Origin: Malacoraja senta
Taxonomy: Eukaryota
NCBI GenBank assembly: GCA_038087875.1
Contig: CM075988.1
Location: 23,438,001 to 23,502,000, forward strand
DNA length: 64,000 nt
Reading direction: 5' to 3'
Part shown: positions 1 to 50,743 of the stretch, one piece after another
How positions within the stretch are numbered: position 1 is the stretch's first letter
Layout of the letters: each line of letters opens with the position of its first letter
The notes under the pieces: generated by a model
What the model was told of the DNA's origin: nothing
What the model saw: the letters and a program-made list of their open reading frames with translations, nothing else
Databases searched by the model: none
Made by a program: the position numbers and the translations under genes

Positions 1-914
1 CAAATTATATTATACTTTTGCACTGTAGTTGGCATTGCAACGTACGAAACAATCTGGCCAAGAAATGCTAGGGTCAAGTGTTGAAAGGGCACCAAGGAGA
101 ATTCATGTGTACTGGACTGTAAAGTAACAGAGTTTCTATGAGCAACTAAAAGGATAAATCAGCAAGCAGAAGAAAATTCACATTTGAATAAGAAATATTC
201 CAGTCTTTTAAGGAAATAATTTTACTCTACTATTGTACAGCTAAAACGTTTAACTATGACTTGATAGCTGCATAATTTCCACATCGAGATCTCAGAAAAT
301 GTACCACAGAACTTTTAAAAGGCAGTGCAAAGCAATAAACATGAAACATTAAATATTAAAATTGTGCTCTCCAGAGAATATAATTAAAAAAGCACGCAGT
401 CATAATATTCATAGTCCGAACTAAAAAAACAAATTGAACTAATATATCAGCACCACAAAGGAACACGTATAAAGAACTGATTTATACAGCCACTGTCTCC
501 TGGAGTAACTCAGCGGGACAAGGTCTCTTAGTTCATTTTCTTCAATGTACTACTCAGGCAGTGGCTCTGGATCAAGGGTGTCCTTGCTTCGTCTCCAATT
601 CTGCAGATCCTGAGATAACTAATGAGTACAACTAATGTAAGGGCTATAGATCAGGGAAGTGGTACCCAACATGATGGATGGGTGGGTAGTTTATGATGTG
701 GATCACTCTTTTTGTCACTTATGTTGGGCTTGGTGCTCCCAATTCACAGATTGGAGATTCTCAGTGCCAAATACTCCTCCTCTGAGAAATTATGGGCCAG
801 AGTTTTCCAAAAAGCTAGAGAGCACATTTTAGAAACATTGAAAATAGGTGCAGGAGTAGGCCATTCGGCCCTTAGAGCCTGCACCGCCATTCAATATGAT
901 CATGGCTGATCATC

Positions 915-3690
915 CAACTCAGCATCCTGTACCTGCTTTCTCTCCATACCCCCTGATCCCTTTAGCCACAAGGGCCACATCTAACTCACTCTTAAATATA
1001 GCCAATGAACTGGCCTCAACTACCTTCTGTGGCAGAGAATTCCAGAGATTCACCACTCTCTGTGTGAAAAATGTTTTCCTCATCTCGGTCCTAAAAGAAT
1101 TCCCCCTTATCCTTTCCCCAACATCGGGAACAATCTTCCTGCATCTAGCCTGTCTAACCCCTTAAGAATTTTGTACGTTTCTATAAGATCCCCCCTCAAT
1201 CTTCTAAATTCTAGCGAGTACAAACCGAGTCTATCCAGTCTTTCTTCATATGAAAGTCCTGACATCCCAGGAATCAGTCTGGTGAACCTTCTCTGTACTC
1301 CCTCTATGGCAAGAATGTCTTTCCTCAGATTAGGAGACCAAAACTGTACGCAATACTCCAGGTGTGGTCTCACCAAGACCCTGTACAACTGCAGTAGAAC
1401 CTCCCTGCTCCTATACTCAAATCCTTTTGCTATGAATGCTAACATACCATTCGCCTTCTTCACTGCTTGCTGCACCTGCATGCCTACTTTTAATGACTGG
1501 TGTACCATGACACCCAGGTCCCCCCTTTTCCTAATCGGCCACCATTCAGATAATAGTCTACTTTCCTGTTTTTGCCACCAAAGTGGATAACCTCACATTT
1601 ATCCACATTATACTGCATCTCCCATGCATTTGCCCACTCACCCAGCCTATCCAAGTCACCTTGCAGCCTCCGAGCATCCTCCTCACAGCTAACACTGCCC
1701 TCCAGCTTCGTGTCATCCGCAAACTTGGAGATGTTGCATTCAATTCCCTCGTCCAAATCATAAATATATATCGTAAATAGCTGGGGTCCCAGCACTGAGC
1801 CTAGCGGTACCCCACTAGTCACTGCCTGCCATTGTGAAAAGGACCCATTTACTCCTACTCTTTGCTTCCTGTCTGCCAGCCAGTTCTCTATCCACATCAA
1901 TACTGAACCCCCAATACCGTGTGCTTTAAGTTTGTATACTAATCTCTTATGTGAGACCTTGTCGAAAACCTTCTGAAAGTCCAGATATAACACAACCACT
2001 GGTTCTCCCTTATCCACTCTACTGGTTACATCATCGAAAAATTCTATAAAATTCGTCAGACATGATTTACCTTTCATAAATCCATGCTGACTTTGTCCAA
2101 TAATTTCACCACTTTCCAAATGTGCTGCTATCCCATCTTTAATAACTGATTCTAGCAGTTTCCCCACTACCGACGTTAGACTAACTGGTCTGTAATTCCC
2201 TGTTTTCTCTCTCCCTCCCTTTTTAAAAAGTGGGGTTACATTAGCTACCCTCCAATCCTCAGGAACTACTCCAGAATCTAAAGAGTTTTGAAAAATTATC
2301 ACTAATGCATCCACTATTTCTGGGGCTACTTCCTTAAGTACTCTGGGATGCAGCCTATCTGGCCCTGGGGATTTATCGGCCTTTAATCCATTCAATTTAC
2401 CTAACACCACTTCCCGGCTAACCTGGATTTCACTCAGTTCCTCCATCTCATTTGACCCCCGGTCCCCTGCTATTTCCGGCAGATTATTTGTCTTCCTTAG
2501 TGAAGACAGAACCAAAGTAGTTATTCAATTGGTCTGCCATGTCCTTGTTCCCCATGATCAATTCACCTGTTTCTGACTGCAAGGGACCTACATTTGTTTT
2601 AACTAATCTTTTTCTCTTCACATATCTATAAAAGCTTTTGCAGTCAGTTTTTATGTTCCCTGCCAGTTTTCTTTCATAATCTATTTTCTCTTTCCTAATT
2701 AAGCCCTTTGTCCTCCTCTGCTGGACTCTGAATTTCTCCCAGTCCTCTGGTAGGCTGCTTTTTCTGGCTAATTTGTACGCGTCATCTTTTGTTTTGATAC
2801 TATGCCTGATTTCCCTTGTTATCCATGGATGCACTACCTTCCCTGATTTATTTTTTTGCCAAACTGGGATGAACAATTGTTGTAGTTCATCCATGCAGTC
2901 TTTAAATGCCTTCCATTGCATATCTACCGTCAACCCATTAAGAATCAATTGCCAGTCTATCTTGGCCAATTCACTTCTCATACCCTCAAAGTTACCTTTC
3001 TTTAAGTTCAGGACCCTTGTTTCTGAATTAACAATGTCACTCTCCATCCTAATGAAGAACTCAACCATATTATGGTCACTCTTGCCCAAGGGGCCACGCA
3101 CAACAAGACTGCTAACTAACCCTTCCTCATTACTCAATACCCAATCTAGAATAGCCTGCTCTCTCGTTGGTTCCTCTACATGTTGGTTTAGAAAACTATC
3201 CCGCATACATTCCAAGAAATCCTCTTCCTCAGCACCCTTGCCAATTTGATTCACCCAATCTATATGTAGATTGAAGTCACCCATTATAACTGTTTTACCT
3301 TTGTTGCACGCATTTCTAATTTCCTGTTTGATGCCATCCCCAACTCCACTACTACTGTTAGGTGGCCTGTACACAACTCCCACTAGCGTTTTCTGCCCCT
3401 TAGTGTTTCGCAGCTCTACCCATATCGATTCCACATCCTCCAAGCTAATGTCCTTCCTTTCTATTGCGTTAATCTGCTCTCTAACCAGCAACGCTACCCC
3501 ACCTCCTTTCCCTTTCTGTCTATCCCTCCTGAATATTGAATATCCCTGGATGTTCAGCTCCCAGCCTTGGTTACCCTGGAGCCATGTCTCCGTGATCCCA
3601 ACTATATCCTAGTCATTAATAGCTATCTGCACATTCAACTCATCCACCCTATTACAAATGCTCCTTGCATTGAGACAAAGCCTTTAGGCT
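915..3690 (-). pseudogene. CR1 ORF2 (endonuclease plus reverse transcriptase), disrupted
   Basis: ORF pieces 2484-3491, 1490-2515 and 1107-1508. Relative to the copy at 27-29 kb there is a 2-bp loss near 2490, about 10 bp lost near 1520 and about 25 bp lost near 1113. Confidence 0.9.
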
Positions 3691-3911
3691 TGTTTTTACA
3701 ACACTCTTACCCCTTATACAATTATGTTGAAAAGTGGCCCTTTTTGATTTTTGCCCTGGATTTGTCTGCCTGCCACTTTTACTTTTCACCTTGCTACCTA
3801 TTGCTTCTACCCTCATTTTACACCCCTCCGTCTCTACACTCACACATTTAAGAAACCCTTTCCCTTTAACTCCATCCTCAACTATCCCATTCGACACCCC
3901 ACCCCCCTTAT

Positions 3912-4937
3912 TCAGTTTAAAACCACCCGTGTAGCAGTGGCAAATCTGCCTGCCAGAATGCTGGTCCCCCACCTGTTAAGATGCAATCCGTCCCTTTTGT
4001 ACAGTTCCCTTTTACTCCAAAACAGATCCCAGTGATCTAAGAACCTAAATCCCTGCCCCGTGCACCAGTTCCTCAGCCACACATTCAGGTCCCGTATCTC
4101 CCTGTTCCTGCTCTTGCCAGCACGAGGAACTGGAAGCAAACCGGAGATAACAAGCCTGGAGGTCCTGCTTTTCAGCATTTTTCCGAGCTCTCTAAAGTCA
4201 CGCTGCAGAATATTCATCCCCTTCTTTCCGACATCGTTTGTGCCGACATGCACTACCACTTCCGGCTGTTCACCTTCGCCCTTGAGGATTTTCTGCACTC
4301 TGTCCGTGACATCCTGGATCCTGGCACCAGGAAGGCAGCACACCATCCTCGAATCCCGTCTGTTGCCGCAGAAACCCCTGTCCGTACCTCTCACAATGGA
4401 GTCTCCCACTACAATGGCGTTGCCTGACTTTGGCCTTTTTGGTTTTGGCTCAACAGCCCTATTCGCATCGCAAGCCAGTCTGCCGCTCAGTGTTAAAACG
4501 TCTTCTGTCCCGACAGCTTCTAAGTGGGTGAACCGGTTCACAAGAGGTACAACACCCGGGGACGTTTGCATTCCATGCTTCCCTCTCTTTCTCACTGTCT
4601 TCCACCTTCTCTCTTCCAGTACCTTAGGTGTAACAATCTTACTGTAGGACTTGTCGAGGAACGACTCAGTTTCTCGGACAAACCCGAGGTCATCCACTTG
4701 CTTCTCCAGTTCCCCAACACGGTCCTTCAGGAGCTGTACCTGGATGCACTTGTCACATTTGTAGCAGCCAGAGGCACCAGCAGTGTCCTTGACCTCCCAC
4801 ATACTGCAAGCATTACACTGAATCAGCTTGCCTGACATCTCCTTCTTTCGTCTCTCCCACTGCAGTGTTTTGCATAGCCTCCTCTCCTCAGCCTCCTCGC
4901 CGAAGACTCTCGAGCCAAGGACTCGCACTTTTCTCAC
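3912..4937 (-). CDS. CR1 ORF1p: Cys-rich zinc finger, leucine-zipper-like coil and SGNH esterase domain
   Basis: CNAC...CYKCDKC; heptad LLKDRVGELEKQVDDL; SGNH blocks VVGDSIVRG, HVGTND, DGLHLN. The frame is open; the true start may be the internal Met of MSGKLIQC. Confidence 0.9.
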   Translation of the reverse strand: MRKVRVLGSRVFGEEAEERRLCKTLQWERRKKEMSGKLIQCNACSMWEVKDTAGASGCYKCDKCIQVQLLKDRVGELEKQVDDLGFVRETESFLDKSYSKIVTPKVLEERRWKTVRKRGKHGMQTSPGVVPLVNRFTHLEAVGTEDVLTLSGRLACDANRAVEPKPKRPKSGNAIVVGDSIVRGTDRGFCGNRRDSRMVCCLPGARIQDVTDRVQKILKGEGEQPEVVVHVGTNDVGKKGMNILQRDFRELGKMLKSRTSRLVISGLLPVPRAGKSRNREIRDLNVWLRNWCTGQGFRFLDHWDLFWSKRELYKRDGLHLNRWGTSILAGRFATATRVVLN

Positions 4938-5036
4938 AGGGCACTTCCCTCACAAGGCCGCTCCCTAAGAGCAGTCTTGCTTATATTGACTAATAAATTG
5001 CATAATTTACCCATTTTTGCAACCCAAATTCCTCAG

Positions 5037-5324
5037 TTTTCAACTGTTTTCCCCCCTTTGACTCACTTCTCTCCTCCCTCTTGGGCTAGAGCCAATCAGT
5101 GTTTTCTCTTGCTAATCTTCTCCTGCTGTTGCTTCCAAATCTACAGCAGCTCTGAGTAAAGTCTGCCTGTGCTTTGCCTCTCCTTTTCAACTGTTTTCCC
5201 CCCTCTGACTCACTTCTCTCCTCCCTCTTGGGCTAGAGCCAATCAGTGTTTTTTCTTGCTAATCTTCTCCTGCTGTTGCTTCCAAATCTACAGCAGCTCT
5301 GAGTAAAGTCTGCCTGTGCTTTGC
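5037..5324. repeat. Two tandem near-identical 141-bp units (period 147 bp) at the CR1 5' end
   Basis: ttttcaactgttttccccc...aaagtctgcctgtgctttgc occurs at 5037-5177 and 5184-5324. Each unit contains agagCCAATcag. Confidence 0.93.
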
Positions 5325-6471: not shown

Positions 6472-7424
6472 CTAAATAGAGCATAGGGAATTGAATCAAC
6501 TATGGTTACCTATAAAGGGACAATCAGTGCAAAGATACTGAATGATGGTGCTTTACCCCATGTATACTTCATCTTTATAATTCCTAATACAGAAATAATT
6601 GCCATGCCTATGCAACAGAACTTGAACATTTTTGTAGCAGTGTTGCCAAGATGGTGTTAATCATATCAAAAATCTGGAATTCAGCTCACGATGTCCCATG
6701 AACAGGATGTCCCAGGAACATATTCAGCATTCATACATTCTGGAGCTTCTACTAGACTATCAACACCAAAATAAGCATTCAAGAGAAGGTATGAAAAAGG
6801 CAGAAAGGCTTTCTCAGAACTAATATGAAGGCTCACAATATTGATGGTGATACATGCGAGGGCTCCAAACCTATCTGATCCACAGCTGTAAGATTGCAGT
6901 TCATGTTTTCAAGCACTAACAGGTGGTTGACAAGATCTACATTGTCAACAGTAACATCACCAGTATTCATGGATGACAGATGTGTATATTTTTTTTAATC
7001 ACAGATTTTTAAAAATGCCAGCCTTTCACTTAATAGCCGAGTAGAGCATTAAACAAACAGATTTTGTTTAAGATTTCCTTTTCTGGGTAGATTATACCTG
7101 GGCAATTTCCCCACATGATCAGATTTGTAGTCATCCTGATTATCACGGCTATAGACTCATAGTCCTGGAGAAAGGTGCACAGTGGCTAGGAGTTTTTCCA
7201 AGTTCCTAACCAGTTACTATATCCAAGGGCCTCAGCTCTTGAAGACTGGAATTGGTAGTGGTGGACATCTCAAGAGGTGAAGATGGATCATCCACTTAGC
7301 ATTTCTGGTGAGGTGATTACAAATGCTACAATGTTTACTTTGACACTCACCACTAAAAAAAACCCCTCCCCCTTCAAGCTTAATTGCAAAACTACCATAT
7401 GCAACCGAGTATGACATCACCACA

Positions 7425-7628
7425 GATAGACACAAAAAGCTGCAGTAACTCAGGACAGGCAGCATCTCTGGAGAGATGGGATGGGTGACGTTTCCGGTCT
7501 GAAGAAGGGTCTCAACCAGAAACGTCACCCATTCATTCTCTGCAGAGATGCTGCCTGTCCCGTTGAGTTACTCCAGCTTTTTGTGTCTATCTTCGGTTTA
7601 AACCAGCATCTGCAGTTCCTTCTTACAC
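7425..7628. mobile_element. Short palindromic Penelope-derived element with a hammerhead-like core
   Basis: Inverted arms at about 7425-7494 and 7519-7592. CTGAAGA-a-GGGTCTCAACCA-GAAACGTC at 7499-7526. Flanked by 14-bp direct repeats atgaYatcaccaca (7411-7424, 7629-7642). Confidence 0.85.
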
Positions 7629-8362
7629 ATGATATCACCACAATCTGATCCACGAGTTGGTGAGATCAGATAATATTTACTACAAGCTGCTTTTGCTGTG
7701 AAAAAACTCATGAAGCCCTTCATTGTAATTTCACCACGTTGATCCTTCATTTATAGGTAATAATTTACTGGACCTAGATTAGCATTGCTTAATGTACAAC
7801 AAATAACCTGCTAAAATATGAGTAAAGTTTTCATCAATCATTTCTTCAATTGATAATTTCTTATATTTCCTCAACATAGATTTGACAAAAGATGCATTTA
7901 AACAAATGTGGGGTAGAAATTTATTTTGGAGAGTGGTATAATACAGTTCAAAACAAGATTTGGCCATTCTACATGAACAAAAATTGAATGAAATTAAATA
8001 CTGAGCCCTACATATAACTGACAGCTGATCCAATGCTGCTCATTTTTCACCGTCTACAATAAATTTCAATGATGTTGGTGCATGTCCCAGATGGTGCACA
8101 TTGCAGCTACCTTCTGCCAACTGTGGAGGTCCTGAATCTTTAGGATGAAAGATTATAACCAAAATACACTCTTAATTCTTTTGAAGTGATTTTCCAACTA
8201 TTTATGAGTCACTATTTGTTGATGACCTATTTTCACCGAGTTCTATAGAACACACCCTTACATACAAGAAGCCTGCACAGTTGGAAGAAAGTGGCTGTGA
8301 CAACAGAACATGCTCAAAGAGAACATTGCTCTAACCAATGAATAAATAACTTTTGAATTTTA

Positions 8363-12029: not shown

Positions 12030-12900
12030 CTTCACCCAGCACTCCCAAGTCCCTTTGCACCTCCGATTTCTGGATTCTTACCCCATTTAGAAAATTGTCT
12101 ACGCCTTTATTCCTACTACCATAATGCATGACTCCACGTTTCTCTGCCCACTCTCCCAACCTGTCCAAGTCCTTCTGCAGAGTCCCTGCTTTCTCTGCAC
12201 TACCTGCCCCTCCACCTATTTTCAAATCATCCACAAACTTTGCTACAAAACTTTCAATCCCCCCGTCCAAATCATTCATATACAACTCTAAGAGTAGCGG
12301 CCCCAGCACCATCCCTTGCGGAACTCCACTAGTCACTGTCAGCCAACCAGAAAAAGCCCCCTTTATTGCCACACTTTGTCTTTTGCCATCCAGCCAACCT
12401 GCTATCTGTCCTGGAAAGAACTGCAGATGCTGGTTTAAATCGAAGGCAGACACAAAATACTGGAGTAACGCAGTGGGACAGGCAGCATCTCTGGAGAGAA
12501 GGAATGGGTGACGTTTCAGGTCAAGACCCTTCTTCAGACTGAAAAAGGTGCCCGACCTGAAATGTCACCCATTCCTTCTCTCCAGAGATGCTACCTGAGT
12601 TACTCCAGCATTTTGTGTTGCTATCTGTGCTAGTATCTGCCCTTTGATACTGTGGGCTCTCATCTTCCTAGGCAGCCTAACATGTGGCTCCTCATCAAAG
12701 GCTTTCTGAAAATCTAAGTGAGCAACATCTACCGACTCTCCTTTGTCTGTCCTGCTATTTAGTTCTTCAAAGAATTCCAGCAAATTTGTAACACATGACC
12801 TCCCCTTCACAAAGCCATGCTGACTTCGGCATATTTTATCGTGAACTTCTCAATACTTCGTAACCTCAGCCTTTATAATAGACTATAAAATCTTACCAAC
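12030..12900 (-). mobile_element. Older CR1 RT fragment interrupted by a palindromic element
   Basis: KGRSCVTNLLEFFEE, LDFQKAFD, SGVPQGMVLGP and KFVDD motifs in ORFs 12565-12810 and 12016-12453. Confidence 0.9.
12410..12618. mobile_element. Short palindromic Penelope-derived element with hammerhead-like cores on both strands
   Basis: Perfect 10-bp target-site duplication tgctatctgt (12400-12409, 12619-12628), which duplicates the host CR1 codons QIA. The minus-strand core at 12537-12510 is intact; the plus-strand core from 12539 is degenerate. Confidence 0.9.
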
Positions 12901-14548: not shown

Positions 14549-15001
14549 ACTTAACAGTGGTATATAATTTGTCCAGTCTGAAGAGAAATGCCAACCTGAA
14601 TCGCCATCTGTCCATTTCCCTTCTCAGATGTTGTCTGCCCTGCTGAGTTCCTCCAGCAATGTTTTGGTATAAGGTGTAGTAATCGTTACACAACAGTTGA
14701 AGTACTATAGCAGTTTTCATTTAGTGTACAAACATGGGGTTCCTGTGGCATTTGAGCAATTTCAACCAACTGTGCACAATAAATTCACCATTCAAAATAG
14801 CATCTAGTTCCCATCATAATATATCTGATGATACTATCTGTCAAGTGCCAGTAAAAAATCTGAGATGTTTAATGTGGTACAATGGGGATAAATTATCCAG
14901 AACTGCATACACAATTAAATTACCAGATATATTTGCCTCATGCAACCGAGGGGCCATTCTTTTTTATGTTCCACCCAAAAACTTAACTCTTAATTTCCTT
15001 A

Positions 15002-18467: not shown

Positions 18468-18602
18468 GGTGTAGGAAAGAACTGCAGATGCTGGTTTAAA
18501 TCGGAGGTAGACACAAAATGATGGAGTAAATCAGCGGGATAGGCAGCATCTCTGGCGAGAAGGAATGGGTGACATTTTGGGTCGAGACCCTTCTTCAGCC
18601 TG
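18468..18602 (-). mobile_element. Penelope-derived short element, single arm, degenerate hammerhead-like core
   Basis: Same sequence family as 7425 and 12410; the minus strand reads ctgaagaagggtctcgacccaaaatgtcaccc. Confidence 0.8.
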
Positions 18603-20435: not shown

Positions 20436-20935
20436 TCAGGTAATGTTCCACTCGGGTACCTAAATTTCAAAAATAATATTTAAAGTTTAATTTTTACACT
20501 GGAATCCAAACCTCTAGCACAACACTCTTCAATGATCGGGCCCCAAATGGTAGTCATTGCAATAATTTACACCACCAGGTGGCATTACCATGCTCATACA
20601 CAAAACCTGTCCTATGGGTGAAGTGCAATTAATTATGGTTTTATACTTCTCACACCCACAAAAATTACAGGTCTTTCCACTGGCAGGCATAATTCCTACA
20701 GTAGGGGAAATCGGGAACCAAGGGATATAGGTTTAAGGTGAGGGGTGATGATTTAATGGGAATTGAGGGGTAACTTTTTAAAACGCAAAGTGTGGTGGGC
20801 GTATGGAGAGTTGCCAGAGGAGGTAGTTGAGGCAGATACTATCACAAAATTTAACATTTAGACAGGTACATGGATAGGATGGGTATAGAGGGATATGGGC
20901 CAAACACACTCAGGTGGAACTAGTGTAGATGGGAC

Positions 20936-22214
20936 ATGTCTGACGAATCTTATAGAATTTTTCGAAGATGTAACTAGTAGAGTGGATAAGGGAGAACCAG
21001 TGGATGTGTTATATCTGGACTTTCAGATGGCTTTCGACAAGGTCCCACATAAGAGATTAGTATACAAACTTAAAGCACACGGTATTGGGGGTTCGGTATT
21101 GATGTGGATAGAGAACTGGCTGGCAAACAGGAAGCAAAGAGTAGGAGTAAACGGGTCCTTTTCAGAATGGCAGGCAGTGACTAGTGGGGTACCGCAAGGC
21201 TCAGTGCTGGGACCCCAGCTATTTACAATATATATTAATGATTTGGACGAGGGAATTGAATGCAACATCTCCAAGTTTGCGGATGACACGAAGCTGGGGG
21301 GCAGTGTTAGCTGTGAGGAGGATGCTAGGAGGCTGCAAGGTGACTTGGATAGGCTGGGTGAGTGGGCAAATGCATGGCAGATGCAGTATAATGTGGATAA
21401 ATGTGAGGTTATCCACTTTGGTGGCAAAAACAGGAAAGTAGATTATTATCTAAATGGTGGTCGATTAGGAAAAGGGGAGATGCAACGAGACCTGGGTATC
21501 ATGGTACACCAGTCATTGAAAGTAGGCATGCAGGTGCAGCAGGCAGTGAAGAAAGCGAATGGTATGTTAGCATTCATAGCAAAAGGATTTGAGTATAGGA
21601 GCAGGGAGGTTCTACTGCAGTTGTACAGGGTCTTGGTGAGACCACACCTGGAGTATTGCGTACAGTTTTGGTCTCCAAATCTGAGGAAAGACATTCTTGC
21701 CATAGAGGGAGTACAGAGAAGGTTCACCAGATTGATTCCAGGGATGTCAGGACTTTCATATGAAGAAAGACTGGATAGACTCGGCTTGTACTCGCTAGAA
21801 TTTAGAAGATTGAGGGGGGATCTTATAGAAACTTACAAAATTCTTAAGGGGTTGGACAGGCTAGATGCAGGAAGATTGTTCCCGATGTTGGGGAAGTCCA
21901 GGACAAGGGGTCACAGTTTAAGGATTAAGGGGAAATCCTTTAGGACCGAGATGAGAAAAACATTTTTCACACAGAGAGTGGTGAATCTCTGGAACTCTCT
22001 GCCACAGAAGGTAGTTGAGGCCAGTTCATTGGCTATATTTAAGAGGGAGTTAGATGTGGCCCTTGTGGCTAAAGGGATCAGGGGGTATGGAGAGAAGGCA
22101 GGTACAGGATACTGAGTTGGATGATCAGTCATGATCATATTGAATGGCGGTGCAGGCTCGAAGGGCCGAATGGCCTATTCGTGCACCTATTTTCTATGTT
22201 TCTATGTTTCTATG
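20936..22214 (+). mobile_element. Young 5'-truncated CR1 (RT C-terminal half, open frame) nested in an older CR1 3' remnant
   Basis: ORF 20895-22115 with FADD and a (TTTCTATG)n 3' tail at about 22190-22214. The flanks at about 20690-20935 and 22215-22268 form one older CR1 3' end. Confidence 0.93.
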
Positions 22215-23029
22215 TCGTTTGGTGTGGCCAAGTAGGGCCAAAGGGCCTGTTTTCACACTGTATGACTCAATAACAGATATGTTTCATTCCAGACAACATC
22301 CTGACAAATCTTTGCTGCACCCTAGCGAAGGCAATATTATTCTTCCTATTGTATGGTGACCAGAATGGGATGCAATACTCCACCTGTCGCCCAACCGACA
22401 AATTTATTAAATTGTACCATATCTTTATCTTATTTTCTATGCCATTGCCAATAAAGACGTAGTCTATTTGTCTTTTTCAGTAATTTATTTCCGTGTGCTA
22501 TCTATTTCAGGAATTTTATGACTCAGGCACTCTCATAACATTTTAGCATCTGGACTTGAATACCCAAGACAAAGGTTTTAGGACTGTCTGATTGATAGGT
22601 ATTAATGTGACTGCTTCCGTGTTGAATGACTCAATGAAGTGCCTGTCTTCATTAACACATTGGTTCTCAGTTTGTTAAATAATGAGACAAAAAATCCACT
22701 TAAAAAAAGTTTAAACAAATAGTAAATAAAGAGGGAAGAGGGAGCTTGACTGGCTTGAGGTTGGTGAAACTGAGAAAGTGATTAGAGGAGGTGGGGTAGA
22801 ACAGCAGCAAAAAAGATGTAGGTGGTAACAGAATTGTAAAATCCTGAAACATTTGGCTGCAACAAGAACAGGCTAATAAAGTCCCTTTTGTTGGCCTACA
22901 CATCACACATTACAAAAATTCAAGATTACTGTAAACAAGTTGTTCTAATACATTTGACCAGTTACCAATATGCTGTCAGATTTTCTTCTTCATATTAAAC
23001 AAGGCAATACAAAAATATATTACATATCA

Positions 23030-23652
23030 CCTCGTAGGAAACAAAGAAATGCTGATGTCGGTTAATACACAAAAGGACACAAATGTTGGAGTAACTCAGC
23101 AGGTCAGGTGGAGAATGTGGTTAAATAATGTTTTGGGGGTCTTTTGGAAGAAAACTGGAAAAGGGGAGAAAGCATGGTGGGGGGGGGGGGGGGTGTGCTG
23201 ACAGGCAGATGCTTGGAATAAAGGTCAAAAATAAGAACAGTAGGCATGAGATAGGTTTGAAGAGTTGTGGATTGTGCATTCAGAGGGAGGAAAGTGGCGT
23301 AGACAGGTGATGAGGGAGTGAAGGGGAGAAATAGGTAAGCCAGGTGGAGCATGGAGTGTGGAAAGGAGTGTGGTGGTGAATGGGAGAGGGGGGGGATGTA
23401 AAATTGACAGGTTACCTAAAATTGGAGAATTCAACATTCATACGTTGCAGAATACGAAATGTTCCTCCAGTTTGTGTGTAGCCCTAAACTAGCAATGGAG
23501 GAGACCCAGGACAGAAAGGTCAGCTGGAGTGGGAAGGGGGTGTTAAAATGGTAAGCAACTGGGAGATCCAGAAGACCTTGGCGTCACTTATCCATGTTCT
23601 CCAGAGATGCTGCCTGACCTGCTGAGTTACTCCAGCACTTTGTGTGCTTTTA
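23030..23652 (-). mobile_element. Degenerate Penelope-like 3' fragment with an inverted terminal piece
   Basis: 23420-23560 is the reverse complement of the PLE C-terminus seen at 56600-56745 (LSVLGLLHC...KLEEH...MNVEFSNF). The terminal arms at 23035-23105 and 23590-23650 are in opposite orientation. Confidence 0.75.
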
Positions 23653-23989: not shown

Positions 23990-26430
23990 CATCAATGCTC
24001 AAGCCTTGCTGAAGTCCCAAAGACAAGATCCTCGTCAATTCTGTTAAGCCTGTCCCACTTGGGAGACCTCCACCGCGACCTCTGGCGACCTTGCCCGCGA
24101 CCCATAGTCGCGGCAATGTCGCCACGAGGTCGTAGGAGGTCTTCATCACTCTCCTTCATGGTCGAGAATGGTCACCGCGAAGTCGAGGCTTCAGCTAGGT
24201 CGCGGCGTATTTTTCAAGATGTTAAAAATTGGCCGCAACTAAAAATAGGTCGCCGTGGGAAAAGTCGATCTTTTTTTAGTCGTAGTCGGTCATAGTAGGT
24301 CGTGATGCTAGTCGTAGGTAGTCGAAGGTAATAGCTCCGCAGTAGAAGAAAGGGGTAATTTAAACAGCAGAACATCACCTCTGTCACTCCAAGGCATGTT
24401 CATTCATAGCTGGAGAGTTTTTTGGAGAGGGGAATAGTGTTTTCGAGATGGCACCAAAAAGGCAGCAGTGCAGGGGGAGGGCACAACCCTCAAATAAACC
24501 TGCCATGCAGGTGTTGCCCACCCAGGGGGAGGAGTGGCAGGAGGTGATGCCACAGGAGGTGATAGTGCAGGAGGAGATAGCCCTGCATGAGAGACCCCTG
24601 GAGGAGGAGACCAGGGTGGCAGTATATGTCCCCACCACCACCCCATCCTTCACTACCTCATTTGAAGGCAGCAAAGCAGCCCTTTCTCCTGTGTCTGACA
24701 CAGCATCAGAGGCAGATGCCCCAGTGGTGGTGAGGGAGGGCTGGAGAAAGGTTATGCCCTACACCTTCACCAGGCAGCAGGAGGGGGACCTTGAGGAAAG
24801 GTTCCAGCAGAATGCCATCCTGTACGATAAGGAAAATGAGGGGTACAGGGACAAGAATGGCATGCTTGCTATCCACTGCCCCACATGTGTGATCAAAAAG
24901 TTCCATCTCTTCCAGTCATCTGGTGTAATGGGACAGTCCATCACATCATCTCCATTCACTCATTGAGACCTCTTCTTGTGCTTCCTCTTCACTCTTGCTC
25001 TTCCCCTTCTGCCTTTCTTAAAAGGCTGCTGAAGCAAAAGGGCGACTGCAAACAGCAGTAGTTGTATTTTTACTAACATCCTCCAAACTAGTTCCTTCCT
25101 TGCTTGCATGGTTCAGAATATTTTTTTTTTAAACCTGGGAGGCATTTTTTAGTGAGAAGAAAATGCAGACATGACATCATTTTATCAGGTGATCATTTGA
25201 GCTGTAGACACTCGTCACTGGTCTTTGTTGGTTTTCCGTGTGGTCCTCTGAGGTGGAAGGGGTTCGTGCTCATTCACGGACCAATTTGCCAGAGACCATC
25301 CTCGAGTAAAACGTACATGGTCGAAGCCAGTCTTCAACATAGTCGAAGGAGGTCGAAGGAGGTCTTCTTCATAGTCGAGGGAGGTCTTCAACATAGTCAT
25401 AGGAGGTCGTACACATAGTCGTGGAAGGTCGTAGGTCACCGCGACCTTGATTTTTTTAAAGTCGCTTAAGGTCGCGGTGGAGGTCTCCTAAGTGGGACAG
25501 GCCCTTTAGTCATTTCTTTAAAAAACTCAATAAAATGATTTATTGCGTTCAAAGCAAAGCTGACCATCACTAAACAATCCTTGTCTTTCCAAATGCAGAT
25601 AGATCCTAGGCTCAGAATATCTTCTGATAATTTCCCAACCACTGATGTTAGGTTTACCACCCTGTTGTTCCCTAGCATGTTCTTGCAGCCTTTCTTAAAG
25701 GCTCAATATTAGCCACCCTCCAATCTTCTGATAGCTCACCTGCAGCCGAGTAAGATACAAAACCCCCTGCCAAGTCCTCAGCAATTCCTACGTGGAATTA
25801 TCGACCTTTATCTATGTTAATAGTGTCAAAACCCCTTTTCATAATATCAATATGTTTCAGGACATCACTGTGCTTCGTCTCTGATTTCCCTAGTTTCTAT
25901 GATCTCCTCCACAGTAAATACAGATGATAAGTATTCATTTAAAATCCTGCCAATCTCCCAAGGTTCCACACCGAGATGACCACATTGATTCACATTCATC
26001 TATTCCCTCTTTAATTATTCTTTTGCTCTTTATATATACTTATAGAATCTCTGGATTCTCTTTCACCTTACCTGCCAAGATTCTCGTCATTTTTTTTTTT
26101 TTACCGTTATTCGTTCTGAAAATTATTCCTAAATCCTTTACACTAAACAGATTTGCTTGATCCCAGCTGCCAGACATAGTGTTTGCATAACTAATCACTC
26201 ATTATCCTTCATCGAGCATGGTCCCTTAATCCTTCAGCGTTGCCCAACACTCAAACATGAAAAAATGACCCTGAACTCTCCATCTCACTTTTAAATGCCT
26301 CCCAATTGCCAGATGCCCCTTTGCCTGCTCATAGCCTTTCCCAGACAACCTTTAAAAGCTCCTATTTAATGCCATAAAAATTAGCCATGCCCTAATTTAG
26401 GACTTTAATTTGTGAACCAGTCTATCTTGT
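23990..26430 (-). mobile_element. Old CR1 ORF2 remnant that hosts the Harbinger-like insertion
   Basis: NRVVNLTSVVGKL...FIEFFKEMT on the right continues as NRIDE...DFSKA on the left of the insertion. Boundaries are approximate. Confidence 0.7.
24047..25505 (+). mobile_element. Non-autonomous PIF/Harbinger-like DNA transposon with a MADF/Myb-like ORF remnant
   Basis: TIRs of about 35 bp (gcctgtcccacttgggagacctccaccgcgacct / aggtcgcggtggaggtctcctaagtgggacaggc). TTA duplicated at 24044-24046 and 25506-25508. Subterminal AGGTCG/TAGTCG arrays. ORF 24448-24966 contains EGDLEERFQQNAILYDKENEGYRDKN. Confidence 0.8.
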
Positions 26431-26431
26431 T

Positions 26432-26531
26432 CAGTCTGAAGAAGGGTCTCGACCCAAAACGTCACCTATTCCTTCTCTCCAGAGATGCTGCCTCACCCAC
26501 TGAGTTACTCCAGCATTTTGTTTCTATCTTG
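26432..26531 (+). mobile_element. Penelope-derived short element, single arm, hammerhead-like core
   Basis: CTGAAGA-a-GGGTC-tc-GACCC-aAAACGTC at 26436-26463; tctatcttg occurs on both sides. Confidence 0.8.
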
Positions 26532-26983: not shown

Positions 26984-29052
26984 ACATAGAAACATAGAAA
27001 CATAGAAAATAGGTGCAGGAGTAGGCCATTCGGCCCTTCGAGCCTGCACCGCCATTCAATATGATCATGGCTGATCATCCAACTCAGTATCCCGTACCTG
27101 CCTTCTCTCCATACCCCCTGATCCCTTTAGCCACAAGGGCCACATCTAACTCCCTCTTAAATATAGCCAATGAACTGGCGTCAACTACCCTCTGTGGCAG
27201 AGAGTTCCAGAGATTCACCACTCTCTGTGTGAAAAAGTTTTTCCTCATCTCGGTCTTAAAGGATTTCCCCCTTATCCTTAAGCTGTGACCCCTTGTCCTG
27301 GACTTCCCCAACATCGGGAACAATCTTCCTGCATCTAGCCTGTCCAACCCCATAAGAATTTTGTACGTTTCTATAAGATCCTCTCTCAATCTCCTAAATT
27401 CTAGTGAGTATAAGCCAAGTCTATCCAGTCTTTCTTCATATGAAAGTCCTGACATCCCAGGAATCAGTCTGGTGAACCTTCTCTGCACTCCCTCTATGGC
27501 TATAATGTCCTTCCTCAGATTTGGAGACCAAAACTGTACGCAATACTCCAGGTGTGGTCTCACCAAGACCCTGTACAACTGCAGTAGAACCTCCCTGCTC
27601 CTATACTCAAATCCTCTTGCTATGAAGGCCAACATACCATTCGCTTTCTTCACTGCCTGCTGCACCTGCATGCCTACTTTCAATGACTGGTGTACCATGA
27701 CACCCAGGTCTCGCTGCACCTCCCCATTTCCTAATCGGCCACCATTTAGATAATAGTCTGCCTTCCCGTTTTTGCCACCAAAGTGGATAACCTCACATTT
27801 ATCCATATTATACTGCATCTGCCAAACATTTGCCCACTCACCCAGCCTATCCAAGTCACCTTGCAGTCTCCTAGCATCCTCCTCACAGCTAACACTGCCC
27901 CCCAGCTTAGTGTCATCCGCAAACTTGGAGATGTTGCTTTCAATTCCCTCGTCCAGATCATTAATATAAATTGTAAATAGCTGGGGTCCCAGCACTGAGC
28001 CTTGCGGTACCCCACTAGTCACTGCCTGCCATTGTGAAAAGGACCCGTTTACTCCTACTCTTTGCTTCCTGTTTGCCAGCCAGTTCTCTATCCACATCAA
28101 TACTGAAACCCCAATACCGTGTGATTTAAGTTTGTATCCTAATCTCTTATGTGGTACCTTGTCGAAAGCCTTCTGAAAGTCCAGATACAACACATCCACT
28201 GGTTCTCCCCTATCCACTCTACTAGTTACATCCTCGAAAAATTCTATAAGATTCGTCAGACACGATTTACCTTTCGTAAATCCATGCTGACTTTGTCCAA
28301 TGATTTCACCACTTTCCAAATGTGCTGCTATCCCATCTTTAATAACTGACTCTAGCAGTTTCCCCACTACCGATGTTAGACTAACTGGTCTGTAATTCCC
28401 CGTTTTCTCTCTCCCTCCCTTCTTAAAAAGTGGGGTTACGTTTGCTACCCTCCAATCCTCAGGAACTACTCCAGAATCTAAAGAATTCTGAAAAATTATC
28501 ACTAATGCATCCACTATTTCTGGAGCTACTTCCTTAAGTACTCTGGGATGCAGCCTATCTGGCCCTGGTGATTTATCGGCCTTTAATCCATTCAATTTAC
28601 CCAACACCACTTCCCGACTGACCTGGATTTCACTCAGTTCCTCCATCTCCTTTGACCCGCGGCCCCCTGCTATTTCCGGCAGATTATTTATGTCTTCCTT
28701 AGTGAAGACGGAACCAAAGTAGTTATTCAATTGGTCCGCCATATCCTTGTTCCCCATGATCAATTCACCTGTTTCTGACTGCAAGGGACCTACATTTGTT
28801 TTAACTAATCTCTTTCTCTTCACATATCTATAAAAACTTTTGCAGTCAGTTTTTATGTTCCCTGCCAGTTTCCTTTCATAATCTATTTTCCCTTTCCTAA
28901 TTAAGCCCTTTGTCCTCCTCTGCTGGTCTCTGAATTTCTCCCAGTCCTCTGGTATGCTGCTTTTTCTGGCTAATTTGTACGCAACATCTTTTGCTTTGAT
29001 ACTATCCCTGATTTCCCTTGTTATCCACGGATGCACTACCTTCCCTGATTTA
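26984..29052 (-). mobile_element. Young 5'-truncated CR1 with an uninterrupted RT frame
   Basis: ORF 27084-29135 (683 aa) with a complete RT domain and no endonuclease; (CATAGAAA)n tail at about 26984-27008. Confidence 0.95.
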
Positions 29053-29204
29053 TACCGTTTTAGAAAGATCTCCCTGCACTCGTATTCAATGACTCTACCA
29101 ATAAAGTCACATTTCTTGTGTCCCTCCTTTACCATCTTTGCAACCTGTGGTGAGAAAGTTATTGGAGGGCATTTTGAAGGACAGGATTAGACCTATTAGG
29201 GATA

Positions 29205-29330
29205 GTCAGAAGGGTCCCGACCCAAAAGATCTCCCATCCATGATCTTCAAAGTTGCTGCCTGATCCGCACAATTACTCCAGCACTGCGTCCTTTTGTAAA
29301 CCAGCACCTACAGTTCCTCATTTCTACTTT
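29205..29330 (+). mobile_element. Degenerate Penelope-derived short element
   Basis: gaagggtcccgacccaaaa...ttactccagcact...aaaccagcacctacagttcct matches the family. Confidence 0.65.
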
Positions 29331-29544
29331 AAATCAGGTTATGTATAGCAAATGGCAGGGTGCAGGGTCCAGAGAAACACAGGGAACAGATATATTTCAC
29401 TGGACGGTAGGGAAAAGGGCATTGGTTTCATCAGTACAATAATGGGTACAATAATTCGGACTCTACAAGTCATTGGTGATACCAGATTTGGAGCACTGCG
29501 TGCAGTTCTGGTAACCCAGCTATCGCAAGGATGTTTATGCATCC

Positions 29545-29905
29545 AACACACCATTCTCTGATATTTCCACCATCTTCAATGTGATCCCATTATCAGTCCC
29601 ATCTTCCTGCACCATCTCTTTCCGGTGAGACCACTTTTTCCATAACTCATTAGTTTGCTCATTTCTCACCACACAACCCAGCCCCTCCCCAAGCCTTTTC
29701 CTTTGCAACCACAGGATGTGTAACATATCCCCTACACCCTCTCTCTCATTTCCATCCAGGGACTAGAGGAGCTCTTCCAGGCAAGGGGAGGTTCACATAT
29801 AATGTTTCCAACCTTGTTTGTTGCATTCGGTGCTCCCGGTGTGGCCTCCTTTACAAATGTGAGACCAAGTGTAGGCTAACGCCGTTTTTCAGAACACGTG
29901 TACTA
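29545..29905 (+). mobile_element. Degenerate Penelope-like GIY-YIG fragment
   Basis: Colinear with 56170-56550 (gatatttccaccatcttcaatgtgatccc; tccaaccttgtttgttgcattcggtgctccc; gagaccaagtgtaggct). Confidence 0.7.
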
Positions 29906-31085: not shown

Positions 31086-31729
31086 CAACATCAATTAAAT
31101 ATAATACCTGAAGGCTGAGGGACTTGATTGATTTTGAGAGGCAGTGAAATTAACAGTTAATTGTACATAGTGGGTCATTTTACTTGATTAGGTTTTGAAT
31201 GAACATTGAATATCAGAATGCCAGTTGGAAGTGTAACCCAAAACATCATTTTTTGAAAATGGTTAAAATGAAGGAATAAATAACCCAGATCCATACAATT
31301 TAACTTCTAAAGATTAACAAATATCATGTATATTTAATTAAATTCTGCTGAAAATGTTTAGTCACGCATCATAAACTGAAGCCTAGTCTAATAGTCATTT
31401 CTTTATAAAATTGTAACATGGTTGCTTTATAACTGAAACTGTTGGGAACCCCTTCTGAGTAAGACTATTGGCATGCTAGACGAGGAACTTGAAAAACAAA
31501 AAAGGCAAAATGAATGCTAGCAAGGATATTTTGGCAATTGGTAATTTAAATCTGTAGAAACGTTCTTTAACAAAGTCACAGATTTTAAAGAAGTTAGAAC
31601 TAACATGAGTATTAAGCTCAACAATTTAAAAAACAGCCCAACATGTCAACACGTGTATTTCATCGAAATATTTTTTGCTTTAAACATTTCCCTCCAACTT
31701 GCCCCCTCCCCAGGATTATCATACAAGCA

Positions 31730-32054
31730 CAGTGCCCTCCATAATGTTTGGGACAAAGATCCATCATTTATTTACTTGCCTCTGTATTCCACAATTTGAG
31801 ATTTGTAATAGAAAAAAAAAAGAAACATGTGGTTAAAGTGCACGTTGTCAGATTTGGGGGGGGGGGGGGCTAAGTATAAACACGCTGTAATTTCTATATG
31901 GTGACACCAAAATGTATAAAAATGGCTTTAATAAAATCTGACAATGTGCACTTTAACCACATGTGATTTTTTCTATTTCAAATCTCAAATTGTGGAGTAC
32001 AGAGGCAAATAAATAAATGACAGGTCTTTGTCCCAAACATTATGGAGGGCACTG
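31730..32054. mobile_element. Tc1-derived MITE made almost entirely of the two TIRs
   Basis: cagtgccctccataatgtttgggacaaag... / ...ctttgtcccaaacattatggagggcactg|TA. The TIR is the same as in the copies at 52.6-53.9 kb and 58.5-60.7 kb. Confidence 0.9.
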
Positions 32055-33167
32055 TACATAGAGGTTCACAAAGAGTTTGAAACTTTTGGATTTCCTCATA
32101 AATTTCATTGGAAGGGCCTGACTCAATGAAGTCAAATCTAATTAAAGGAAATTGCTGATCAGTCACATACGTCAGCAACTGTCCGCCACAATTGTTTGAC
32201 TTTGCAGCTTGCCAAACAGATCAGATAACTAGAGTGCAGGGATGAAAGCTGAGAGAATGCAACAGTACTAAAAATATGATATTTATCAATGACCAGAACT
32301 AAGGTACAATGCACGGGGAGCAATTCCTTAAAATGTCCAATGAAGCAGAGTGGTCTCCCGTGTTCTATAAGACAGTGCACCAACAAGGCAACTTCTGTAA
32401 TGCACAATGTTTGCATAGATCCAAACCCAATAAAATGTAGGAAATTCCTAGGTGCCTGAACTGATGCAAAAAGGAAAAAGGGAGCAAGAGGGAATACATG
32501 GAGCAAGGGAGTTAGGAGGAGCGCAACAAGATAATCGGGTGCAGTGTTCTTTTGGGGGGGGGGGGGAAGAGATAAATTAAGCTAGAGCAAACAGTGGTGA
32601 GAACAAGTAAGAGAAGACACTGGTTGCAGGAAGCAAGAAGAGCAAGCTAGGGCATGCGAGGGGAAGGGGGGTAAAACTTGGGGTAAAGGGGAGGGGAAGA
32701 GCAAACAAGCTTAAAGTGGGGAACAGTGGACAAGTTTGGAGTGGGTTGTAGTGGGTTTTGTTGATGTTTACAGCTGGTCTGGCACACCCATCAGCCTACG
32801 CTTTTAAAGAAACCACATACAGGTTGAGAGTCGACCTTAACGCCGATGTAAAGTGTGAATGAAACTGTGCTCGTAGTTCTTGCCAGCTTCACACGAGCGC
32901 ACGGCCGCGGGTTGCGATCTCTGCAGATTCTCACATTTTGTAAACCATCAGAGTAAAGGCTGTCTCACTGCTGCATAACTCTGTCTGCTTGCCTGTTAGC
33001 CACAGGTGCTCGGTAAAGACAGGGGCTGAGAATCTCTCACAGAGACAGCAACATGCAGAAACGGGTGGTCGATAGTGCCTGTCACGGTCAAACTTTAAAC
33101 AAGGTCACATCACGAGGGCGACGTGACTGTAAAGTTGGCTTTGCTAAAAGTGTAGGAAGGAACTTTC

Positions 33168-35171: not shown

Positions 35172-35395
35172 ATGTGCAGGAAGGAACTGACAGATGTTGG
35201 TTTAAACCGAACATAGACACAAAATGCTGGAGTAACTCAGCAGGTCAGGCAGCATCTCTGGAGAGAAGGAATGGGTGACTTTTCAGGTCGAGGGTCAAAT
35301 TCGAAGAACGGTCTCGACCCGAACGTCACCCATTCCTTCTCTCCAGAGATGCTGCCTGACCTGCTGAGTTATACCAGCATTTTGTGTCCATATTC
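35172..35395. mobile_element. Short palindromic Penelope-derived element
   Basis: Inverted arms acacaaaatgctggagtaactcagcaggtcaggcagcatctctggagagaaggaatgggtgac and its reverse complement surround a degenerate hammerhead-like centre (ggtctcgacccgaacgtca). Confidence 0.85.
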
Positions 35396-35484
35396 GGAAC
35401 AGCAATCTCCTTCCAAATGTACAGTCACACAGAAAAAATCTTTCAGAAAAGGGTTTCACATTTTATAAACTAGAACGAAGAAAT

Positions 35485-42906: not shown

Positions 42907-43946
42907 CTGCAAAGAGAATAAATATCTCTAGATAATGATGTTCATAACAATTTTTTCTCATTAGGAATTCAAAACAGATAATATGACAAACTGTTGTTCA
43001 TATATAAACAAGTTAACATTAGATCTTCCTTTTCACAATTTTCCTTCAGACAACAGTATAAATTTCTTATAAACTTATTAAGCAATTACATTTGATTATT
43101 CATTTCACACCGTGTCTCCAAACTTGTTGTCATCGTATATGCAGGAATCACAAACAGTTGGCAAAATCATATCTTAGTCAATTTTAACCTTCCTAAAATT
43201 GGGTGCTGAAGCTATTTTTAGCATCCCTGTAAACAACCCCACAGTTCAATCCCCACCTCCCCCAAGTTAGCAAACTCATCACATGCTGAATGTGTGTGTA
43301 GGATAGAACTGCAAATGCTGGTTTAAACCTGTCTACAAGCTGAACGTGTATTGTGCTAGGGAACTTCCTTCACTATTCTGGGCCAACTCTAGTTTGAGGC
43401 TGGTCGTTAACAGGAAAGAGGTAATGACAGGCTTTAAGAAACAAAGAGAAGAGAGGAAGTAAAGCATTGTCTGCCCACAAAGCAGTTGTACGTGCAGTTA
43501 ATGAATGCAACCACTGTGGCTAATGAGAGGCAGGTACTAAGTTTCACGTTATTAATTTTGAATGGTGACAAATAATTTAAGTGACCATTTGAATGTGTTT
43601 CGATTTTCAACACATTTAGTACTTTTTTGATTTGCAAATCTCTTCCTCTTTTCTCAACATGCCCCAATAACACTGAAAGTAACACATTCAGTTGTTTGGT
43701 GTTAGATCACCGATTCTCAAGAATTTAACACACATTCTCAAGAATTTAACACCCCTAAGACCGGCCCTCCAACGCTGATGAGTTTTCTGTTCAATTATTC
43801 AAAAAAGTCTATAGTCTTCAGTTTCTCTTTTTTTTTTAAATATAAAGAAACATGGTTCCTCTATATATTTGTCCGAATCATTTGTAAATTTTATAAGTTT
43901 TGTACATTGCAGAATTGATGAAAAGCAAAAGACAGTGGATACACTA

Positions 43947-49762: not shown

Positions 49763-50044
49763 TTCAAAATTAAAACAATTGAGAACTCACTTATTATTCC
49801 CACTATTAAAACTGCAATTTAAATACAATTTTGAAACACAAAATAACTGATTTTGAAAATGCAACAGATATCTAACGTAGGCTAAAAGGCTAAAAAAAAT
49901 AGATACTCAATCCATACAGTATTTCACATATTTTAAAGTTAACACCACTGATTTTTTTTCCAATCAACACATCATATTATCCTCTGTAGTCTTACATAGG
50001 GTAAAAATCTTTATCAATACTATCTTACATTGTTAGCCAAGAAA

Positions 50045-50118
50045 GATAGCCTTGGCTATCCCTCAGTACAGCAACGTCAAGAACGATGTCGCTGTACTGA
50101 GGGATAGCCAAGTCTATC
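50045..50118. repeat. 34-bp inverted repeat with a 6-nt loop
   Basis: gatagccttggctatccctcagtacagcaacgtc-aagaac-gatgtcgctgtactgagggatagccaagtctatc; 3 mismatches between arms. Confidence 0.9.
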
Positions 50119-50743
50119 CCTCATTGCTGGCAGCTGATGGGAAGCGGCTGTAAAGTGGGAAGTGGCTGTAAAAGGACAGCACCGCTGGGTGGGGGGGTGG
50201 AAAGAGTTCCTTTCACAGCGTGGGGAGTCTAGCCCGGGTCAGCACGGGCAGGAGCGTTGAGAAGGAGGGGGTCGGGGATCATGCCAGCAAATCACTCACC
50301 GCTGCCGCGGCACTCCGGAGGCGAAGCCACCGCATGTGGCCGGGGAGGGAAGTAGCTCGAGTGGCTGCGAGCGGCCGCCAGGACCGGACAGCGGAACCGG
50401 CCGCCACCACAGCACCTCCTGCCAGCCCGGGGATGCTGTCCGGTCCCAGCGGCCGCTCCCGTTTTGGCACTACTGATCCTTACGTTTCAATTTCCTATTT
50501 CCTTAGCACTCCCGTTTTTCCCCACCATCTATCCACCTGCCGTCACCCTCCACCCCCACCCATTCAGTCATTCAGAATGGAGGAGATCTGGAAGCCTTGG
50601 GCAAATTGAATTGTCACTTTTTTTATTTTTATAATTTACTTTTTTTTTTTAGCTTGAGAAATTCTATGTCCCGCCAGCCTTGTTTCAAAATTTAGCAACT
50701 CAAAATGGTGATGCGTCTTCATTGCCGGGAAATAGGGTACTTA

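Follow-up and report, generated by a model that had tools for sequence, protein, structure and literature searches.

The palindromic unit at positions 7411-7642 of the 64,000-nucleotide stretch of Malacoraja senta DNA analysed here (the window) is probably, at a likelihood we place at roughly four in five, an old ORF-less insertion of an abundant pLTR-only repeat of the Neptune type of Penelope-like element (PLE), whose palindrome was built at insertion. The layout of the unit is already known for PLEs and is here reduced to the pLTR alone: the unit measures 205 bp, contains no ORF of 120 aa, and so lacks the internal RT and GIY-YIG ORF of an autonomous element. That the palindrome is a real structure is confirmed. 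Its inverted arms comprise an inner pair (7453-7498 with 7515-7560, 46 nt, 89%) and an outer pair (7419-7452 with 7564-7597, 34 nt, 91%), and the whole hairpin has a folding energy of -129.1 kcal/mol (z -16.6), with 0 of 200 shuffled sequences equally stable. The 14-bp direct repeats that an earlier reading of the sequence had placed around the unit are borne out, since 7411-7424 and 7629-7642 match at 13 of 14 positions (p 0.001 against 3000 random flank pairs). The parts of the unit are as follows.

7411-7424, + strand: left copy of the target-site duplication (TSD), edge +/- 1-2 bp; 13/14, p 0.001
7424-7498, - strand: inverted pLTR copy, tail-less and 5'-truncated; in its own sense without a CUGAAGA box
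7497-7592, + strand: direct pLTR copy, beginning at the sharp 5' boundary of the family
7499-7526, + strand: minimal type I hammerhead core inside the direct copy; putative cleavage after 7526
7593-7628, + strand: PLE "tail" of 36 bp, at one end of the unit only
7629-7642, + strand: right copy of the TSD

Since A7424 and A7629 are possibly element-derived, the edges of the duplication carry an uncertainty of 1-2 bp, and at the centre of the unit the inverted arm and the direct copy overlap by 3 nt, GTC (7497-7499). The order of TSD, tail-less inverted copy, direct copy, 36-bp tail and TSD therefore makes the unit asymmetric. The sequence-only reading had described a palindrome of ~200 bp in which two ~70-bp arms enclose the hammerhead core; the inverted arms stand, but the symmetry does not, as 7593-7628 has no partner, and neither does the enclosure, as GAAACGTC sits in the right arm. 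The unit differs from the family majority by 6-8%, the same as other copies.

A BLAST comparison of the unit with the window found 14 places representing 13 insertions. All ten relatives previously claimed were recovered, together with 500-520, 43295-43329 and the copy at 56857-56994; ORF-less palindromes make up only four of the 13 insertions, those at 7411, 12414, 35167 and 55537, and the others are monomers, fragments and ORF stubs. The basic unit is a monomer of ~97 or ~133 bp. The flanks of the insertions have an AT-richness of 0.52-0.72, against 0.60 for the window overall. The relatives are listed here, the two ORF-bearing insertions last.

500-520, - strand: 21-bp piece of the pLTR body
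12412-12620, - strand: palindrome (insertion 12414) centred at the CAG preceding the core; sits in a CR1 RT gene
14573-14657, + strand: monomer, old and 36% diverged from the window majority
18469-18602, - strand: monomer with tail; TSD not significant
26432-26529, + strand: tail-less monomer; 11/12 direct repeat overlapping the 3' end, p 0.003
29205-29325, + strand: diverged monomer with tail, of another subfamily, 31% from the majority
35172-35397, - strand: palindrome (insertion 35167) with a different centre and filler; direct arm without CUGAAGA; 12/13 direct repeat
43295-43329, - strand: tail-only fragment
50745-50854, + strand: tail-less monomer (monomer 50757) with a 9-bp inverted stub and a 4-nt loop in front; TSD not significant
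55537-55607, + strand: short inverted arm fused straight to the tail; 7-8-bp flanking repeat overlapping the element ends, p 0.034
23033-23645, - strand: older ORF-bearing PLE stub; decayed GIY-YIG C-terminus, UTR, and decayed pLTR and tail at the 3' end
56142-56988, + strand: 5'-truncated PLE, probably of Neptune type, 5' edge approximate; linker, GIY-YIG, UTR, pLTR, tail

The kinship of the unit to a Penelope GIY-YIG element, as proposed earlier, holds. The unit is 79% identical to 56857-56994 over 141 nt, and this copy lies within the element at 56142-56988, in which a CX4CxxC linker is followed by a GIY-YIG domain with CCHH (Pfam E 1.1e-4), a pyrimidine-rich UTR, a pLTR with its core at 56859, and the tail. 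Shark and ray proteins, at 58-65% identity, are the nearest relatives of the GIY-YIG frame, and longer relatives carry RT and GIY-YIG. A CX2-5CxxC linker and the CCHH motif are given as defining Neptune/Nematis in the available text of PMC8557442; both are found in the frame 56087-56749, and by its linker and CCHH motif the partner element appears to be of Neptune type. The older stub at 23033-23645 bears a tail-less inverted arm (23582-23645) at its 5' end, and its edges carry an 11/13 repeat (p 0.11) that is suggestive only. Since this stub has the same tail-less inverted arm and tail, one layout is common to ORF-bearing and ORF-less insertions in the window. A PLE RT core, or an RT gene of the unit's subfamily, was not found in the window, which counts against our reading. 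A third decayed PLE ORF fragment, with the linker and the start of GIY-YIG, lies at 29415-29893 on the + strand; it follows the diverged pLTR at 29205-29325 at a distance of ~90-290 bp, and the two possibly form a partial tandem.

The ends of the family at large were read from contigs of four runs (four organisms in four studies; four of the 24 listed) aligned to 7150-7900. Between 211,227 and 234,637 contigs per run match, nearly all of them on the element, a measure of great abundance and not of copy number, to which sums of contig depth do not correspond. Among the 24 of 1575 loose-end entries listed, loose ends pile up before 7497 in all four runs (1465-1949 contigs) and also behind 7629/7630 in all four, and the flanks beyond the piled-up ends are not common to the contigs (agreement 0.33-0.35). 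Tail-less 3' ends fall at 7586-7594, again in all four runs, so that there are two classes of 3' end, and with ends at 7497, 7586-7594 and 7629/7630 the basic units come to ~97 and ~133 bp. Copies begin 2-6 nt ahead of CUGAAGA, and the upstream letters they have in common amount to only about ATCA, the same in the ORF stub. Because this boundary, at 7497, precedes the predicted cleavage site after 7526 by ~30 nt, ribozyme cleavage does not set the 5' end; no pile-up of loose ends was found at 7527 among the 24 of 1575 entries listed.

The same contigs bear on the age of the insertion at 7411. Contigs from its flanks extend into the element by 22-29 letters, in four of four runs on the left side and in two of four on the right, short of the 31 letters set by the bridging rule; because they enter the element as an assembly graph does at a repeat that is present, the insertion is probably old and shared. 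An empty site at 7411 was not found among the 15 of 935 joint classes listed, a point against our reading. Tail-to-tail joints at 7586-7594 and 7629-7630, which like head-to-tail joints form small classes, account for 10 of these 15 listed classes, in all four runs; here a tail-less end stands beside an opposite-strand tail end, as would chains of inverted units or insertions into older copies. A 26-nt pattern matched no locus in the metagenome contigs or prokaryote genomes searched.

Spliced RNA might be proposed as the source of the 5' boundary: in the ORF stub the core is preceded by a pyrimidine tract and CAG, and the end of the Drosophila Penelope intron falls at helix I (PMC4209133, in the text available). 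The tract at 56825-56858 lies directly before that core, is splice-acceptor-like as in Drosophila Penelope, and overlaps the initiator-like TCAGTCT. We disfavour such an origin: the contigs show no common upstream exon (agreement 0.34-0.35). The motif TCAGTCT at the 5' boundary fits the initiator consensus.

Direct repeats were tested at 11 insertions and are significant at 7411 (13/14), 12414 (12/13), 35167 (12/13) and 26432 (11/12). The repeat at 55537 (8 bp) is borderline, and those at the other six (14572, 18469, 29208, 50757, 56142 and 23033) fall short of significance. Three of the four palindromes reach p 0.001, in favour of our reading; a point against it is that significance is found in only one of five monomers and neither of two ORF stubs. 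The duplication at 12414 is 10 bp exact and 12/13 overall: when the flanks are translated separately, Gln-Ile-Ala appears on both sides at the same three positions of an intact CR1 frame from the window, and because the CR1 codons recur in register on either flank the repeat is duplicated host DNA. The repeat statistics and these duplicated codons support the earlier claim of a retro-type insertion with a long TSD. The TSD sequences of different insertions are unrelated and up to 14 bp long; the three clear ones measure 13-14 bp with edges of +/- 1-2 bp, which would allow for a near-fixed length and counts against our reading.

The proposal that the inversion point varies between copies, and that the palindrome is rebuilt at each insertion, fared well: all four ORF-less palindromes have different centres. 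That of 12414 is a 4-nt overlap at the CAG preceding the core, that of 35167 contains filler and has lost CUGAAGA, and at 55537 the arm is directly joined to the tail. With only four centres the sample is small, and a hairpin may also lose its centre after insertion, which weighs against our reading. Further centres with short fillers occur among the contig joints, of which 15 of 935 classes are listed, and serve as examples, not counts; that assembly may break contigs at palindrome centres is another point against. Arm identity within units (60/66, 56/61 and 65/68) is slightly above that between units (54/61 to 58/61), a difference so slight that it too goes against our reading; subfamily letters are common to both arms of one unit at 7411 and 35167.

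The layout, the TSDs and the homology to the GIY-YIG stub agree with the earlier idea of mobilisation by a PLE, and the following sequence of events would account for the copies. A PLE RT/GIY-YIG protein would make a staggered cut at the target, and reverse transcription would start from one of two internal pLTR sites, located ~94 and ~130 nt past C3 of the hammerhead and separated by the 36 nt of the tail. Extension of the cDNA would end at a set position 2-6 nt before CUGAAGA, probably where the RNA itself begins, and a fixed stop with two starts would yield monomers of ~97 and ~133 bp. Some events would add a second cDNA, inverted and tail-less, joined head-to-head via 3-4 nt of microhomology or filler, and because this joining would take place in individual events the palindrome would be built at each insertion. 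The hammerhead would be a passenger inherited from the pLTR.

How the inverted arm arises can be answered in more than one way. Priming on each target strand, using the two start sites, is placed slightly ahead, at a little under even odds; it is favoured because the tail-less monomers 26432 and 50757 end where inverted arms end, as they should if the tail-less site is an RT start. Fold-back self-priming of the cDNA end, which has been proposed for PLE inverted repeats (PMC3846280, as far as its text is available), is given two chances in five, and is favoured over two-strand priming by the 9-bp inverted stub at 50745; the 7411 junction is compatible with both. Later deletion at a fixed centre takes the small remainder. 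In vitro work published in 2024 demonstrated, for an anole PLE, that reverse transcription starts internally and at two sites; there the tail is flanked by two internal RT starts, the protein nicks and extends both target strands, and a ribozyme-dead RNA still inserts (PMC11167929, in its available parts); these data concern a Poseidon element and not a Neptune one, which tells against our reading.

The hammerhead core consists of CTGAAGA at 7499-7505, an A, stem II at 7507-7518, and GAAACGTC at 7519-7526, and a 28-nt core pattern has five matches in the window against none in 100 shuffles. CUGANGA, the extra base before stem II, GAAA, the palindromic ACGU (15.2-16.2) and GUC are all present in the 7411 copy and agree with the hallmarks described in the accessible text of PMC4209133, so that the minimal type I anatomy claimed earlier is supported; a type III hammerhead was ruled out by eye, the stem I loop having no room. 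All core letters are intact in two of the ten cores scored (7499 and 12537). The G10.1-C11.1 pair that closes stem II is replaced by G-A in the 7411 copy and kept as G-C in four of eight aligned copies; position 7518 is A in the 7411 copy and C in most of the contig depth, the family majority. Helix I has 2 bp in most copies and 3 bp in the 7411 copy, short of 4-5 bp. In stem II of eight aligned close copies, a sample too alike to decide, two-sided changes occur in none of four pairs and the covariation score is not above that of shuffles (122-186 of 500). Hammerhead models, which had been suggested as a check, gave no support: Rfam searches returned no hammerhead match in the whole window (E up to 5) or in 7400-7660 (E up to 10), where the weak hairpin matches were far below the gathering score.

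When two whole palindromes were folded, the pairing probability of stem II was 0.000 and GAAA was paired with the inverted arm; under the same folding model monomers also stay mostly away from the active shape (at most 0.10). In the 7411 palindrome the hammerhead is thus, on the predicted folding, most likely sequestered, unable to fold and inert as a ribozyme. Read in its own sense, the inverted arm is without CUGAAGA, so the unit has no same-strand partner with which to form a dimer.

These properties bear on the rival origins that can be proposed for the unit. Under a non-LTR retrozyme model, tandem dimers would self-cleave, circularise and re-insert, with monomers and palindromes as their offspring. 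The two intact cores are in keeping with such a model, as are head-to-tail joints from 7629 to 7497 in 40-45 contigs per run (a small class, whose intervening letters are not given) and the report of retrozymes in one chondrichthyan genome in a 2026 preprint (bioRxiv 10.64898/2026.07.22.740005, in the text available). Yet same-strand tandems are absent from the 13 insertions in the window, the cleavage site is ~30 nt downstream of the 5' end with no pile-up at 7527 among the loose ends listed, helix I has 2-3 bp and covariation stays within the range of shuffles. By definition, moreover, retrozymes are tandems whose hammerheads are canonical, and the minimal PLE type is kept apart (PMC7229834, in its available text). 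We consider this origin improbable, and the sequence-only description of the units as retrozyme-like is, in the defined sense, not upheld, given the missing tandems, the displaced 5' end and the core sequestered in the hairpin. An ordinary MITE, a non-autonomous DNA transposon with captured pLTR sequence, would explain the ~200-bp size, strong hairpin, direct repeats and high copy number; against it stand the asymmetric ends with their 36-bp one-sided overhang, the prevalence of monomers, the four different centres and TSDs that are unrelated in sequence and up to 14 bp long, where symmetric terminal inverted repeats and a fixed duplication would be expected. A true Tc1-type MITE at 31729-32056, with flush symmetric ends and TA, provides the contrast. 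This possibility is very slight and already largely refuted, and the earlier view that the unit is not a MITE is sustained. Equally slight is the chance that the 7411 locus is an exapted functional host ribozyme or hairpin RNA. The unit is seemingly present at the locus in all four organisms, but shared presence fits an old fixed insertion; the locus has lost the G10.1-C11.1 pair that the family majority keeps, its core is predicted to be fully sequestered, and its divergence is like that of other copies.

A different proposal refines our reading rather than replacing it: the copies may form a self-propagating, non-autonomous, SINE-like pLTR-only family, in which solo pLTRs are transcribed from an internal promoter at the core and re-inserted in trans, the alternative source being run-off cDNA from the 5' pLTR of the mRNA of an autonomous element. 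The 5' end is sharp, with no common upstream sequence beyond about ATCA, the number of matching contigs in every run is very large, and 16 of 93 positions separate the short copies from the ORF stub in the window, against 3-11 that separate them from their own majority. An ATG frame is open through the tail of the ORF stub and interrupted by a stop in all four short copies translated; as an ORF start, this frame gave a best E of only 0.73 against a profile of 17 N-termini. Precedents are pLTR-derived repeats in Xenopus (bioRxiv 10.64898/2026.07.22.740005) and Adineta pLTRs that act in trans (PMC3846280), both as given in the available texts. On the other side, an autonomous member of the subfamily may exist outside the window, and the anole protein required RNA to +172 of the ORF, past its RT starts at +111-118, a segment that may be absent from solo pLTRs (PMC11167929, in part). 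We hold the proposal tentatively, at not quite one chance in two. The template would be either the mRNA of an autonomous element (its 5' pLTR) or a solo pLTR or separate non-autonomous master, and the differences among the short copies lean towards a separate family.

A more far-reaching version, which we regard as rather doubtful, takes the short copies as "strong-stop" PLE products that start internally and run off at an initiator-like RNA 5' end. Because initiation would be internal and the promoter would travel with the copy, the 133-bp pLTR would be self-renewing, a tRNA-free SINE-like element of very high copy in cartilaginous fishes, and the palindrome would be a record of two-strand priming. 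The Drosophila Penelope promoter lies within the pLTR according to the available text of PMC2377424. If true, this version would let a single model cover three features of all EN+ PLEs, namely tail, inverted pLTR and TSD.

The rest of the window holds CR1, Tc1-like and other repeats. CR1-type LINE copies lie at 830-4949, 20747-22215, 26984-29186 and 61287-62108, one with an ORF1 that carries a GDSL esterase-like domain (Pfam E 1.4e-11) and another with an RT frame open over 700 aa; pieces of a further LINE RT lie at 62738-63911. The Tc1-like family (31729-32056, 53547-53888 and 58483-60717) comprises a ~330-bp hairpin MITE with TA ends, whose hairpin is what the Rfam match to MIR1435 at 31772 represents, and a copy of ~2.2 kb that has transposase-like frames and whose inverted ends are long. 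Two elements with 45-48-bp inverted ends and a similar terminal motif, 43947-44930 (with a CR1 fragment inside) and 24048-25502, are probably non-autonomous DNA transposons. A decayed DNA-transposase-like frame at 51321-52145, the first part of which has no Pfam match, is one we take to be hAT-like. A separate ~94-bp palindrome at 50035-50128 (44-nt arms, 84%, 6-nt loop) is unrelated to the pLTR family, and two adjoining ~141-bp direct copies at 5037-5324 form a local tandem duplication.

The value of these observations lies in the family as a dataset for PLE integration and not in the 7411 locus itself, which shows no sign of function and, on the predicted folding, should not be counted as an active ribozyme. 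A pLTR-only family with sharp ends and very many copies bears on the origin of PLE inverted repeats and tails by supplying centres, tails and TSDs on which two-strand priming can be set against fold-back. For annotation, pLTR-only copies resemble MITEs or pre-miRNA hairpins and belong with PLEs. A literature search that lacked most subscription papers found nothing on the unit's family in cartilaginous fishes or on PLE twin priming; the chondrichthyan families of the 2026 preprint may include it.

The novelty first attributed to the unit was overstated. According to the available texts, an inverted pLTR, a 31-bp tail on one copy, 8-10-bp TSDs and palindromes at head-to-head junctions have been described (PMC3846280), inverted pLTR, tail and TSD are typical of EN+ PLEs (PMC3846280; PMC8557442; PMC8969392), and pLTR-derived non-autonomous hammerhead repeats were previously known (PMC4209133; bioRxiv 10.64898/2026.07.22.740005). 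The minimal type I hammerheads of metazoan PLEs are reported as mostly dispersed single motifs, ascribed to truncated PLEs, with opposite-strand pairs 100-700 bp apart (Cervera and de la Pena 2014, PMC4209133, in part). The present family resembles them in CUGANGA, the extra base, G10.1-C11.1 in its majority and the palindromic 15.2-16.2, and differs from the Schistosoma families there (stem II of 7-8 bp, helix I of 4-5) in a stem II of 4 bp and a helix I of 2 bp. For PLE hammerheads, cleavage as dimers has been reviewed (PMC6765202), and the preprint, in its available text, argues for pLTR-derived non-autonomous retrozymes, with one of nine dimers cleaved. With non-LTR retrozymes as described (Cervera and de la Pena 2020, PMC7229834; Li et al. 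2026, bioRxiv 10.64898/2026.07.22.740005) the copies share a non-coding, pLTR-related, hammerhead-bearing nature, dispersed monomers and dependence on a PLE protein; they differ in that the window copies are not tandem, the hammerhead is minimal, the 5' end is off the cleavage site and the duplication is inverted. Like Anolis PAc, a Poseidon element (Frangieh et al. 2024, PMC11167929, in part), the family has two 3' ends that are separated by the length of the tail and lie roughly 95-130 nt beyond the hammerhead, and element ends that are not set by ribozyme cleavage; unlike PAc, its linker is of the Neptune type, another clade. The closest match is with EN+ PLEs as described in the accessible parts of PMC3846280 (Arkhipova et al. 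2013), PMC8557442 (Craig et al. 2021) and PMC2377424 (Schostak et al. 2008): the 7411 unit has pLTR/3'-end sequence, a shorter, 5'-truncated inverted pLTR head-to-head at the 5' end, a 30-40-bp tail at one end, a TSD around the whole and a palindrome or microhomology at the junction, and solo pLTRs occur in both. It departs from them in being an insert of ~205 bp without an ORF between the repeats, in a 5' end that is sharp and not scattered, and in very high abundance.
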